Below the pieces are notes generated by a model that was not told where the DNA came from, ran no database searches, and saw only the letters and a list, made by a program, of their open reading frames with translations. The position numbers were made by a program, and so were the translations under genes. Of a DNA stretch of 54,238 bases, positions 27,666 through 28,404 are shown one piece after another. The DNA comes from a virus (Duplodnaviria > Heunggongvirae > Uroviricota > Caudoviricetes). Position 1 is the stretch's first letter. Each line of letters starts with the position of its first letter. Location of the stretch: the IMG/VR virus record IMGVR_UViG_2541047842_000005; one strand, given 5' to 3'.

Positions 27666-27755
27666 ATGATTGCGTCAATACTAACTTTCGTCGGCGGGAT
27701 GGCGGCTGGATTCATCCTTTGCCTGTTTCTGGTAGTTATGTCTATGCGAGACTGA
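27666..27755 (+). CDS. micro-ORF 1 of tandem hydrophobic-peptide array (29 aa)
   Basis: MIASILTFVGGMAAGFILCLFLVVMSMRD; SD GAGG upstream. Confidence 0.3.
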   Translation: MIASILTFVGGMAAGFILCLFLVVMSMRD

Positions 27756-27757
27756 TT

Positions 27758-27820
27758 ATGGACGCTTATTTATTTATCGGAATGGCGGCGGCTGTAATAT
27801 TGTTTTTGTTGTGGAAGTAA
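27758..27820 (+). CDS. micro-ORF 2 (20 aa)
   Basis: MDAYLFIGMAAAVILFLLWK; shares the junction TGATTATGGACGCTTA with unit 3. Confidence 0.3.
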   Translation: MDAYLFIGMAAAVILFLLWK

Positions 27821-27825
27821 TGATT

Positions 27826-27930
27826 ATGGACGCTTACATCATTGCCGGATTAATCGGCGTTTCTGTGTTTCTTGCTGGTTCTATTATAGTTGCGCTGATA
27901 AACGTATATATCAAGTATTTGGTGGGGTGA
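27826..27930 (+). CDS. micro-ORF 3 (34 aa)
   Basis: MDAYIIAGLIGVSVFLAGSIIVALINVYIKYLVG; SD GGAAG upstream. Confidence 0.3.
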   Translation: MDAYIIAGLIGVSVFLAGSIIVALINVYIKYLVG

Positions 27931-27935
27931 AAAAT

Positions 27936-28010
27936 ATGATTGACCCGCTAATTATCCTTTCTGCCTGCGTCGCTGTATGGCTGGCGATCATGATATTCAT
28001 TGAAAGCTGA
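27936..28010 (+). CDS. micro-ORF 4 (24 aa)
   Basis: MIDPLIILSACVAVWLAIMIFIES; SD GGGGTG upstream. Confidence 0.3.
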   Translation: MIDPLIILSACVAVWLAIMIFIES

Positions 28011-28021
28011 AGGTATCCACA

Positions 28022-28102
28022 ATGAACGCATACGAAATGCTATTGCTGGTGGCTGTTATTACAGTTATTGCCGTAGATGTTTATCGGGAGTTTAAAAAAT
28101 GA
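28022..28102 (+). CDS. micro-ORF 5 (26 aa)
   Basis: MNAYEMLLLVAVITVIAVDVYREFKK; SD GAAGG upstream. Confidence 0.3.
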   Translation: MNAYEMLLLVAVITVIAVDVYREFKK

Positions 28103-28167
28103 AATGGCTTGATTTCTTTTTCCTGATCGTTGCGATTGTTCTCACTATGACCGCGCTTGCTCAATAG
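28099..28167 (+). CDS. micro-ORF 6 (22 aa)
   Basis: MKWLDFFFLIVAIVLTMTALAQ; ATGA overlap; SD GGGAG upstream. Confidence 0.3.
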   Translation: MKWLDFFFLIVAIVLTMTALAQ

Positions 28168-28175
28168 GTGAAAGC

Positions 28176-28250
28176 ATGAACGCTATTGATATTATGTTGA
28201 TCGTGTGTACCGTTGCATTAGTTATTATTGGGGTGATTATCAATGTCTGA
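28176..28250 (+). CDS. micro-ORF 7 (24 aa)
   Basis: MNAIDIMLIVCTVALVIIGVIINV; SD AGGTG upstream. Confidence 0.3.
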   Translation: MNAIDIMLIVCTVALVIIGVIINV

Positions 28251-28311
28251 TGGTGATTTCTTAATCATGGCTATATGCACGCTGTTAACTGTTATTGTTT
28301 TCTTCGCGTAA
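28243..28311 (+). CDS. micro-ORF 8 (22 aa)
   Basis: MSDGDFLIMAICTLLTVIVFFA; overlaps unit 7 by 8 nt in another frame; SD GGGGTG upstream. Confidence 0.25.
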   Translation: MSDGDFLIMAICTLLTVIVFFA

Positions 28312-28320
28312 AGGTAAACA

Positions 28321-28404
28321 ATGAAAGAATTATTCGATTGGTTGGAAGTATTAACATACTGTGCAAGTTTTGTTGCTTGCGTATATATCATCAATAAATA
28401 TTGA
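28321..28404 (+). CDS. micro-ORF 9 (27 aa)
   Basis: MKELFDWLEVLTYCASFVACVYIINKY; SD AAAGG upstream. Confidence 0.3.
   Translation: MKELFDWLEVLTYCASFVACVYIINKY

Follow-up and report, generated by a model that had tools for sequence, protein, structure and literature searches.

A chained array of predicted single-helix peptide genes preceding terS in mEp021-like temperate coliphages

Introduction

The closest described counterparts of the locus considered here include very small bacterial membrane proteins that gene finders overlook, among them the class that contains AcrZ, MgtS, MgrB, KdpF, CydX and PmrR, whose members measure 20-50 amino acids (aa), consist of a single transmembrane (TM) helix with scarcely any soluble part, and exert their effect in the bilayer, where they bind larger membrane proteins. 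In phages, too, small membrane proteins and unannotated micro-genes are known in general (PMC11323111). The subject of this work is an array of nine micro-open reading frames (micro-ORFs) at positions 27666-28404 (plus strand) of a 54,238-nucleotide stretch of viral DNA (IMG/VR record IMGVR_UViG_2541047842_000005; the window, in what follows, is this whole stretch), a prophage that belongs with the temperate coliphages of the mEp021-like (mEpimmI) group. The array lies between a gene for a HExxH protein and terS, the gene of the small terminase subunit, and the analysis of its coding signal and of related loci confirms, at the level of sequence, that the nine ORFs are real protein-coding micro-genes, chained from the HExxH gene to terS.

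Members of the AcrZ/MgtS class, of which KdpF scores like the peptides of the window, are, unlike the units of the array, solitary chromosomal genes with their own regulation and known targets; they form no coupled array, and no sequence similarity to them was found. A mechanism of the kind proposed below is known for phiX174 E, LysM of phage M and papillomavirus E5, in each of which a short TM helix encoded by the virus attaches to the part of a host protein (MraY, MurJ or the platelet-derived growth factor (PDGF) receptor) that is embedded in the membrane; these, however, are single genes with known targets, mostly of 37-91 aa, with neither an array nor homology. Holins and antiholins (lambda S105/S107, T4 RI, P2 LysA/LysB, P1 LydB) are also small, late membrane proteins encoded near lysis genes, and lambda S107, T4 RI, P2 LysA/LysB and P1 LydB regulate the timing of lysis from positions beside those genes, but they measure ~68 aa or more, contain at least two TM domains or a soluble domain, and occur as one or two per phage. 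In filamentous phages, the proteins VII and IX (and VIII) and the Pf3 coat protein are inner-membrane peptides of 32-44 aa with one helix, acidic N-termini that face outward, and hydrophobicity profiles similar to those reported here, and adjacent micro-genes are translated by coupling; yet these peptides are virion components, only two or three in number and without homology to the array, whereas the phage examined here is tailed (terminase, portal and tail genes). The psm-alpha locus of Staphylococcus aureus consists of four tandem paralogous micro-ORFs of 20-22 codons that were long missed by annotation, but it is chromosomal and encodes secreted cytolysins that are amphipathic (hydrophobic moment ~0.5, as opposed to 0.07-0.25 here). 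Tandem type I toxins (Ibs/Sib, Ldr/Rdl, Hok/Sok, Zor/Orz), finally, are very small and hydrophobic, often occur in tandem in E. coli and prophages, and often go unannotated (PMC2887945). Each of these has its own promoter, a long 5' untranslated region (UTR) and an antisense RNA, with units hundreds of bases apart, whereas those of the array abut or overlap.

Tandem micro-ORF loci (type I toxins, psm-alpha) and coupled micro-genes (gVII and gIX of Ff phages) are known already. No description was found in the literature of an array in which as many as 13 distinct single-helix peptides are chained in translation and vary in the manner of cassettes; the original prediction, made by a model from the letters of the window, had known of no counterpart, and the 2025 paper that defines the phage group is silent on the array. 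The evidence for the reality of the array is solid. Genes of 20-35 codons fall below standard annotation length cut-offs, and the region, as had been expected, is left unannotated: the corresponding 751-bp gap is empty in the RefSeq/PGAP annotation of a prophage of 100% identity, and likewise in the curated mEp021 record. The region is found in 34 of 5426 complete E. coli genomes, in which RefSeq leaves the 751 bp blank, and records based on PHANOTATE call some of the units 'hypothetical protein'.

Evidence for nine coding units

The nine ORFs, all initiated by ATG on the same strand, are of 29, 20, 34, 24, 26, 22, 24, 22 and 27 codons, in order. Unit 1 begins 2 nt beyond the stop of the HExxH gene, unit 9 ends 10 nt before terS, and the junctions between them measure, from unit 1 to unit 9, +2, +5, +5, +11, -4 (ATGA), +8, -8 and +9 nt. 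The original prediction was correct in its description of nine ATG ORFs of 20-34 codons at these positions, in their near-abutting or overlapping arrangement (gaps of 2-11 nt, overlaps of 4 and 8 nt), and in the absence of any ORF above 60 codons from the interval, where the longest ORF of the minus strand, with a TTG start, encodes 58 aa and that of the plus strand 40 aa. Other parts of it need to be narrowed. A purine-rich Shine-Dalgarno (SD) sequence, claimed for every unit, is good in seven of the nine and weak in units 2 (GAGAC) and 3 (GGAAG); the single TM helix claimed for every product is supported for eight by a hydrophobicity criterion, with unit 9 borderline; and the placement between the lysis cassette and terS is right in that terS adjoins, but the array directly follows the HExxH gene, with the cassette 0.8 kb upstream.

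Since a T-rich plus strand (37% T in the interval vs 26% across the window) by itself favours hydrophobic ORFs, the interval was shuffled 2000 times with its dinucleotide content preserved. The nine hydrophobic ATG ORFs observed compare with a mean of 2.5 and a maximum of 8 in the shuffles, none of the 2000 matching the observed number; ORFs cover 92% of the interval, in comparison with 29% on average and 75% at most; and seven hydrophobic ORFs carry an SD motif, the shuffles giving a mean of 0.4 and a maximum of 4. The minus strand of the interval contains one such ORF. In the called frames, T makes up 53% of codon position 2 and G 36% of codon position 1, and this focusing is the signature of a sequence that codes for apolar residues, and not of evenly T-rich DNA.

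Further evidence comes from 53 homologous loci, which include 7 GenBank phages, 44 usable contigs of the 45 retrieved from IMG/VR by terS, and 2 contigs found through the HExxH protein. The peptide sequences and their apolar character are under purifying selection. Among distinct alleles compared within families, the ratio of non-synonymous to synonymous polymorphism (pN/pS) is 0.13-0.59 in all 14 families tested and 0.34 when these are pooled, while values of 1.04 and 1.16 are obtained when these alignments are read in the two wrong frames; variable sites number 139, 96 and 231 at codon positions 1, 2 and 3, respectively. At positions with an apolar consensus, 97% of replacements stay non-polar, whereas 77% would be expected from random single-base changes (p = 1e-13). 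Called starts are also distinguished from other ATGs by the energy of the anti-SD duplex, with medians of -5.0 and -2.2 kcal/mol, respectively, for the same spacers (p = 2e-30). Overall, comparison among the loci gives a signal for nine to thirteen selected genes that equals in strength that of ordinary genes, and the combination of coupled starts, T at codon position 2 and frame-specific pN/pS provides a recipe by which similar arrays could be sought.

The frames themselves are kept. Single units account for 472 DNA homologues, of which 427 are intact and unchanged in length, ~38 are intact with an altered C-terminal length and ~7 are disrupted, so that ~98% are intact; relatives that conserve the DNA while breaking the frames, which the original prediction had named as a pattern that would refute it, are not what is seen. 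All homologues of families A (50/50, at the same length) and G (37/37) are intact, 50 of the 51 of family B have the same length, and 43 of the 44 of family K are stand-alone ORFs of 31-38 aa, the remaining one being fused in frame to unit A in locus L046 (2730-2912) to give a natural two-helix protein of 60 aa. In family H, with 37 homologues, the start is changed to ACG in one lineage of four loci (L016, L019, L021, L025). Other disruptions are a premature stop in unit D (L045, 2924), an ATA start in unit D (L030, 3078), and a read-through of unit E into the wrong frame of unit B (L017, 3014). Genes that are mostly intact and occasionally decay have the look of genes that are dispensable but selected.

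Organization of the array and its neighbours

The units and the adjoining features are listed in Table 1. Several stops are embedded in the SD of the next gene (CAATAGGTGA, GCTGAAGGTAT, GCGTAAAGGTAA), and the stop lies within or beside the following SD in motifs such as TAGGTGA, TGAAGGT and TAAAGGT. Units 2 and 3, whose SDs are weak and whose starts lie 2 and 5 nt past the previous stop, begin inside a repeated TGATTATG junction and would rely on stop-start coupling. At the other end of the chain, the stop of unit 9 lies inside the SD of terS (TGAGAGGTG), in the window as in most loci, and this SD (GAGGTG) is a strong one in its own right.

Table 1. Units of the array and neighbouring features (positions in the window)
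Feature	Coordinates	Strand	Product length	Sequence and remarks
Unit 1, family J1	27666..27755	+	29 aa	MIASILTFVGGMAAGFILCLFLVVMSMRD; J1 carried by 12 loci, every copy intact
Unit 2, family J3	27758..27820	+	20 aa	MDAYLFIGMAAAVILFLLWK; J3 carried by 8 loci, all identical
Unit 3, family K	27826..27930	+	34 aa	MDAYIIAGLIGVSVFLAGSIIVALINVYIKYLVG; alternative ATG at 27820 would give 36 aa; pN/pS 0.25
Unit 4, family A	27936..28010	+	24 aa	MIDPLIILSACVAVWLAIMIFIES; pN/pS 0.32
Unit 5, family B	28022..28102	+	26 aa	MNAYEMLLLVAVITVIAVDVYREFKK; pN/pS 0.26
Unit 6, family C	28099..28167	+	22 aa	MKWLDFFFLIVAIVLTMTALAQ; start overlaps stop of unit 5 (ATGA); pN/pS 0.13
Unit 7, family G	28176..28250	+	24 aa	MNAIDIMLIVCTVALVIIGVIINV; pN/pS 0.41
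Unit 8, family H	28243..28311	+	22 aa	MSDGDFLIMAICTLLTVIVFFA; 8-nt overlap with unit 7; pN/pS 0.33
Unit 9, family I	28321..28404	+	27 aa	MKELFDWLEVLTYCASFVACVYIINKY; pN/pS 0.29
Stretch in front of terS, including its SD				TGAGAGGTGAATTATG
terS, Sf6-type small terminase subunit	28415..28930	+		Pfam PF20901 (Sf6_terminase), E = 1e-37; ends the coupled chain
HExxH gene	27121..27663	+	180 aa	phrog_1365
Two terminator-like hairpins with U-rich tails	26999..27100	+		RNA folding; between Rz and the HExxH gene
Lysis cassette	25691..26841	+		Holin 25691-25891, endolysin 25892-26383, Rz 26371-26841 with embedded Rz1-like lipoprotein ORF

The lysis cassette, identified by Pfam matches to Phage_lysozyme and Phage_lysis and named in RefSeq as holin, lysozyme and lysis protein, already includes a canonical class II holin directly before the endolysin gene. 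About 280 nt, with both terminator-like hairpins, separate the cassette from the HExxH gene, and the hairpin site matches the predicted terminators TERM_6 of mEp021 and T11 of mEp013.

The HExxH protein ends in a disordered, K/E-rich tail of 45 residues and has homologues of 37-46% identity in P22-like phages. One of these, ST64T orf-129, sits between the lysis genes and terS, while HK620 hkcC and the P22 ORF lie near the sieA and immI region; a micro-ORF array was not found next to any of the three. A functional tie between the HExxH gene and the array, by way of peptide processing, is rejected as a general rule because these homologues have no neighbouring array. An AlphaFold model of the protein (predicted local distance difference test, pLDDT, 72) gave no match to a PDB fold at E < 0.1, and one NR record labels it 'PolyVal metallopeptidase'.

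Properties of the predicted peptides

With a mean Eisenberg hydrophobicity (<H>) of at least 0.69 over 18 residues as a simple criterion for a TM helix, eight of the nine peptides qualify (<H> 0.69-0.94, hydrophobic moment 0.07-0.25) and unit 9 is borderline at 0.64. These values match those of KdpF, Pf3 coat, M13 gVII and IbsC and differ from those of the amphipathic phenol-soluble modulins (~0.5). The grand average of hydropathy (GRAVY) of the peptides of the window is 0.8-2.4. In most families the N-terminal flank carries a charge of -1 to -2, typically in the pattern M-x(2-4)-D/E, with 0 in families C, J1 and J2, and the C-terminal flank a charge of about 0 to +3.8, with the exception of family A (-0.9), both of whose ends are acidic; in net charge the peptides are acidic or neutral, not basic. 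Under the positive-inside rule, an acidic N-flank and a neutral or basic C-flank predict an N-out/C-in orientation, and since this topology resembles that of Pf3 coat or M13 gVII, insertion would probably be of the YidC type or spontaneous. Motifs of the GxxxG type are present in J1 (GMAAG), J2 (GVFVG) and E (GMMLG).

Searches of the nine peptides against Pfam, PHROGs, NCBIfam and PADLOC yielded nothing at E < 0.03, the weak matches being noise of TM composition. No holin family was matched in Pfam or PHROGs, and most units lack a charged tail; toxin families (Hok, Ldr, Ibs, TisB, ShoB, Fst and others) gave no Pfam or NCBIfam match at E <= 0.1. A PDB sequence search with unit 3 returned only noise, and the label 'DUF1043' that NR attaches to unit 1 was not reproduced by a Pfam scan.

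Families, architectures and origin

The region is 100% identical in E. coli GN04592, MS 21-1 and CB7286 and 84-90% identical in phages MagusPhagus, mEp010, mEp013, mEp021, mEp044, mEp515 and mEp554. Across the loci, 318-1154 bp separate the HExxH gene from terS, and in every case this space is filled by 3-13 hydrophobic micro-ORFs, most neighbours being spaced at -8 to +17 nt. The peptides represent at least 17 families, within which lengths are fixed (24 aa in 47/47 copies of A, 26 aa in 48/49 copies of B), and which follow the colinear order J-K-(D)-A-D-E-B-F-C-G-H-R-L-I. Genes are present or absent as wholes, giving 36 architectures among 51 loci; that of the window is J1-J3-K-A-B-C-G-H-I, and the smallest, in locus L018, consists of the three genes J2-K-I. 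The overlapping pairs G-H, B-C, E-B and L-I travel together.

Genes of other kinds are found at or near the slot in some relatives. A soluble, acidic ORF of 52-66 aa (…VVSNEELKIADEIKKALDAAENN…) stands between unit I and terS in L052 (3326-3490), L014 (3331-3489) and L019/L020 (~3308-3490), and the slot therefore also takes genes that do not encode membrane peptides. An HNH endonuclease gene lies between the HExxH gene and the array in mEp013 (L005, 2042-2527), and in a metagenomic relative (L053, 2752-3273) an HNH gene lies inside the lysis cassette, between endolysin and Rz.

The original prediction had the array grow by duplication and divergence, and this is borne out in part, unproven for the whole. 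Tested against shuffles that preserve composition, paralogy is clear among families C, F and R (z = 6-10) and between J2 and J3 (z = 5.4), and traces in the DNA link units 1, 2 and 3; similarity among B, D, G and L is weaker and comes partly from a shared architecture, which shuffling destroys, and most families are too diverged for a common origin to be proved. The junction TGATTATGGACGCTTA that units 2 and 3 had been said to share is real and belongs to a 29-nt repeat at their starts (79% identity), while the likeness of the starts of units 5 and 7 (MNAY/MNAI) is weak. In addition, CGAGRCTGATTATG is common to the HExxH-unit 1 and unit 1-unit 2 junctions, and CGGRATGGCGGC to units 1 and 2. 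Unit 2 (MDAYLFIGMAAAVILFLLWK) looks chimeric, with the 5' start of unit 3 (K-type) joined to a body of J2 type (J2: ...LFIGMAAAVILLVGE), and not like a simple duplicate. Junction modules (ATAGGTGA, TGATTATG, GCTGAAGGTAT) and similar 5' coding ends (MNAYE, MNIYD) sit exactly at the points where whole genes are gained or lost, the A-to-B junction of the window corresponding, for example, to A-to-D in MagusPhagus; repeated modules at such points suggest unequal recombination between units. Repeat searches found neither tandem nor inverted repeats in the array.

A homologue of unit 1 in rV5-like phages

Unit 1 (J1; window 27661-27760) has ~80% nucleotide identity to a 29-codon ORF of virulent rV5-like (Vequintavirus) myophages, among them FV3 (L057, 2500-2600), V5, LL12 and MiataMamis (L060, 406-495), which is unannotated in FV3 and LL12 and hypothetical in MiataMamis. 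The homology is confined to the ORF and the TGATT that precedes its ATG, the flanks being ~27-30% identical, and the 18 base differences include 8 synonymous changes and 7 conservative replacements. In the rV5-like phages the homologue is one coupled gene within an extended series of small accessory genes close to nrdD/G and phoH, away from lysis and packaging genes. Judged by this pattern of identity, unit 1 has passed to or from these unrelated virulent phages as a single-ORF module.

In INPHARED, matches to the remaining eight units are confined to mEp021-like phages, and broader searches with individual units are in agreement. From IMG/VR, a degenerate pattern for the DNA of unit 4 retrieved 36 contigs, almost all of which had already been obtained through terS, plus three others (two of ~53 kb and one of 21.6 kb); a HMMER search of 1.84 billion representative proteins with unit 3 returned only its own family, with 2 matches; and for the L peptide of 47 aa, the matches of a word-indexed search of a 5.8-billion-protein index were all E. 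coli relatives (70-91% identity). The sequence of rV5-like E. coli phages is matched equally well by true Vequintavirus records and by several unannotated GenBank records of 135-141 kb that bear the name 'Campylobacter phage' (H105-H111); the host label of the latter may be wrong, or they may be contaminants.

Expression

Antitermination of the N-like and Q-like kinds is required by phages of the mEp021-like group (PMC11893012). The mEp021 genome encodes a Q-like late regulator upstream, with one terminator before the holin gene and another after Rz, and in the window the terminator-like hairpins downstream of Rz imply a need for either antitermination or an undetected promoter if the HExxH gene, the array and terS are to be transcribed. 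Consensus scans of 25000-29200 gave 6 promoter-like sites, compared with 8.2 expected from shuffles, and none that would form a plausible antisense unit; no strong terminator was seen inside the array, and an Rfam scan of the array found no family and no antitoxin RNA. Most likely, the array would have no promoter or terminator of its own and would ride on a late transcript, dependent on Q, that extends from the lysis genes into those for packaging, with ribosomes passing from unit to unit by termination and reinitiation, all along the chain between the HExxH gene and terS. In Rfam, the ribosomal S15 leader gives a match below threshold, which spans the end of unit 9 and the start of terS (28362-28443, plus strand; 22 bits against a gathering threshold of 39.5, E = 0.03) and is taken as chance.

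Functional readings

As candidate functions, the original prediction had named superinfection exclusion, control of lysis timing and a toxin-like depolarization of the membrane. Peptides that have no soluble domain must act inside the bilayer. The reading preferred here, at a probability of roughly 0.45, is that the array supplies dispensable accessory peptides of lytic growth, which would bind TM segments of membrane proteins of the host or of rival phages; a block to the entry of superinfecting DNA, or the neutralization of membrane-bound host functions, would be possible effects. It is unlikely that the peptides are core components of lysis or packaging. An accessory role is argued for by the lack of a soluble domain, by a content that varies in cassettes of whole genes at a slot open also to an HNH gene or a soluble ORF, and by the movement of unit 1 between unrelated phages, where it would function in other genomic surroundings. 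The array shares with accessory cassettes a variable content at a fixed slot, between the conserved HExxH and terS genes; the promoter and terminator of its own that a 'moron'-type element would carry gave no signal above background within the array or just before it. Should the peptides act on membrane proteins in the bilayer, they would represent a K-12-compatible set of natural TM-only effectors, the mEp phages plating on W3110, and the array, for which natural presence/absence variants already exist and can serve as a guide, could make testable the role of the very many small hydrophobic ORFs of phages.

Several points weigh against this reading. Selection on the peptides is purifying and not diversifying, contrary to what a simple arms-race model predicts. 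Families A, B and C are present, at the DNA level, in nearly all loci, and family I has a DNA homologue in 53/53, always as the last hydrophobic unit; such near-universality fits a conserved role linked to lysis or packaging equally well. Genes for superinfection exclusion are normally expressed from the prophage, and no promoter is evident at the array. The topology, in which each peptide would insert into the inner membrane as one helix with its N-terminus in the periplasm and its C-terminus in the cytoplasm, is predicted, as is the route of insertion, from charge rules.

A more far-reaching form of the accessory reading, tentative and on the doubtful side, is that the array is a combinatorial system of conflict at the membrane, in which each TM-only peptide of 20-47 aa would dock onto the TM domain of a different membrane protein of the host or of a competing phage, and cassettes would be shuffled to match hosts and rivals. 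Targets could include DNA-entry channels, membrane-bound effectors of abortive infection and enzymes of envelope biogenesis. If this were true, the array would be a natural phage counterpart of engineered TM 'traptamers', with cassettes that cross between temperate siphophages and virulent rV5-like myophages. Known superinfection-exclusion proteins (T4 Imm, P22 SieA, HK97 gp15) are membrane proteins, made in lysogens or soon after infection, that keep out the DNA of other phages; PADLOC gave no match to the peptides, and consensus scans detected no independent promoter.

The main rival to the accessory reading, itself unlikely, is that the peptides modulate the timing of lysis as antiholins or holin accessories, by joining holin assemblies or by altering the state of the membrane. 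The array probably belongs to the same late transcription unit as the holin, endolysin and Rz/Rz1 genes and begins 0.8 kb downstream of them, its peptides are transmembrane-only, families A, B, C and I are nearly universal, and known regulators of lysis are also small membrane proteins encoded beside the lysis genes. In mycobacteriophages, genes for membrane proteins downstream of lysis cassettes are suspected of roles in lysis (PMC4351075). On the other hand, two terminator-like hairpins and the HExxH gene come between array and cassette; a 66-aa holin is encoded in every related locus whose annotation or gene calls were examined, while the content of the array ranges from 3 to 13 genes; the homologue of unit 1 in rV5-like phages lies away from lysis genes; and the peptides have no similarity to holin families.

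It is improbable that the peptides are instead the parts of one hetero-oligomeric helix bundle, equivalent to a polytopic protein or channel, for which coupling would set the stoichiometry. Tight coupling does favour fixed ratios, the GxxxG-type motifs of J1, J2 and E and the co-travelling of the overlapping pairs would suit such an assembly, and the natural K-A fusion joins two of its would-be helices in 60 aa. However, a composition so variable, with 36 architectures and as few as 3 genes, the occurrence of unit 1 alone in rV5-like phages, and the decay of single units to pseudogenes while their neighbours persist are hard to reconcile with a bundle.

Toxin-like peptides of the type I kind, which would depolarize the membrane in the service of addiction, abortive infection or host shut-off, are distinctly improbable. 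In size and hydrophobicity the units resemble Ibs-type toxins. Loci of type I toxins are in many cases duplicated in tandem and overlooked by annotation (PMC2887945). Against this, the units are 0-17 nt apart or overlap and leave no room for 5' UTRs or antisense genes, no NCBIfam or Pfam toxin family is matched, the peptides are net acidic or neutral rather than basic, and expression from a late operon would already precede lysis. Of the features of a type I toxin-antitoxin locus, the array has hydrophobic products of the right size (below ~60 aa); an antisense RNA, separate transcription units and a family match were not found, nor was an antitoxin RNA in Rfam, and since consensus scans give it neither a promoter of its own nor an antisense signal above background, the array is not regarded as such a locus.

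It is very improbable that the peptides are incidental and that the chain of ORFs serves translation, either by keeping ribosomes on the mRNA (against Rho or RNases) or by setting the translation of terS through serial reinitiation. The unbroken chain that ends with the stop of unit 9 in the terS SD, the constant position of unit I as the last hydrophobic unit, directly before terS in most loci, and the freely varying length of the array are what such a relay would lead one to expect, but it does not account for purifying selection on the amino acids of every family, with apolar character specifically kept, for lengths fixed within families, or for the conservation of unit 1 in a different genomic context, and terS has a strong SD of its own. 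Chance ORFs in T-rich non-coding DNA, such as a packaging site or regulatory region upstream of terS, would have been suggested by the T content, by the tendency of T-rich DNA to hydrophobic ORFs and by the frequent location of packaging signals near terS, but are effectively refuted by the shuffles (0/2000), the concentration of T at codon position 2, a pN/pS of 0.34 against about 1.1 in other frames, the ~98% of homologues that are intact, and the lack of tandem or inverted repeats and of any match to an RNA family.

Other hydrophobic micro-ORFs

A second pair of hydrophobic micro-ORFs, of 37 and 39 aa and both with an SD, is present in the early region of the window (11330-11443 and 11452-11571, plus strand). 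Its DNA is 88-92% conserved in six mEp phages, and the match in mEp021 spans a hypothetical protein, a terminator and a gene annotated as 'putative toxin-antitoxin system subunit'. Ipe, a protein of mEp021 known for a haemolysis phenotype, has its gene elsewhere (17562-17795 of the mEp021 record). Isolated hydrophobic micro-ORFs with an SD, of 33 and 24 aa, lie at 6321-6422 and 43803-43877 on the minus strand, outside larger ORFs of the same strand.

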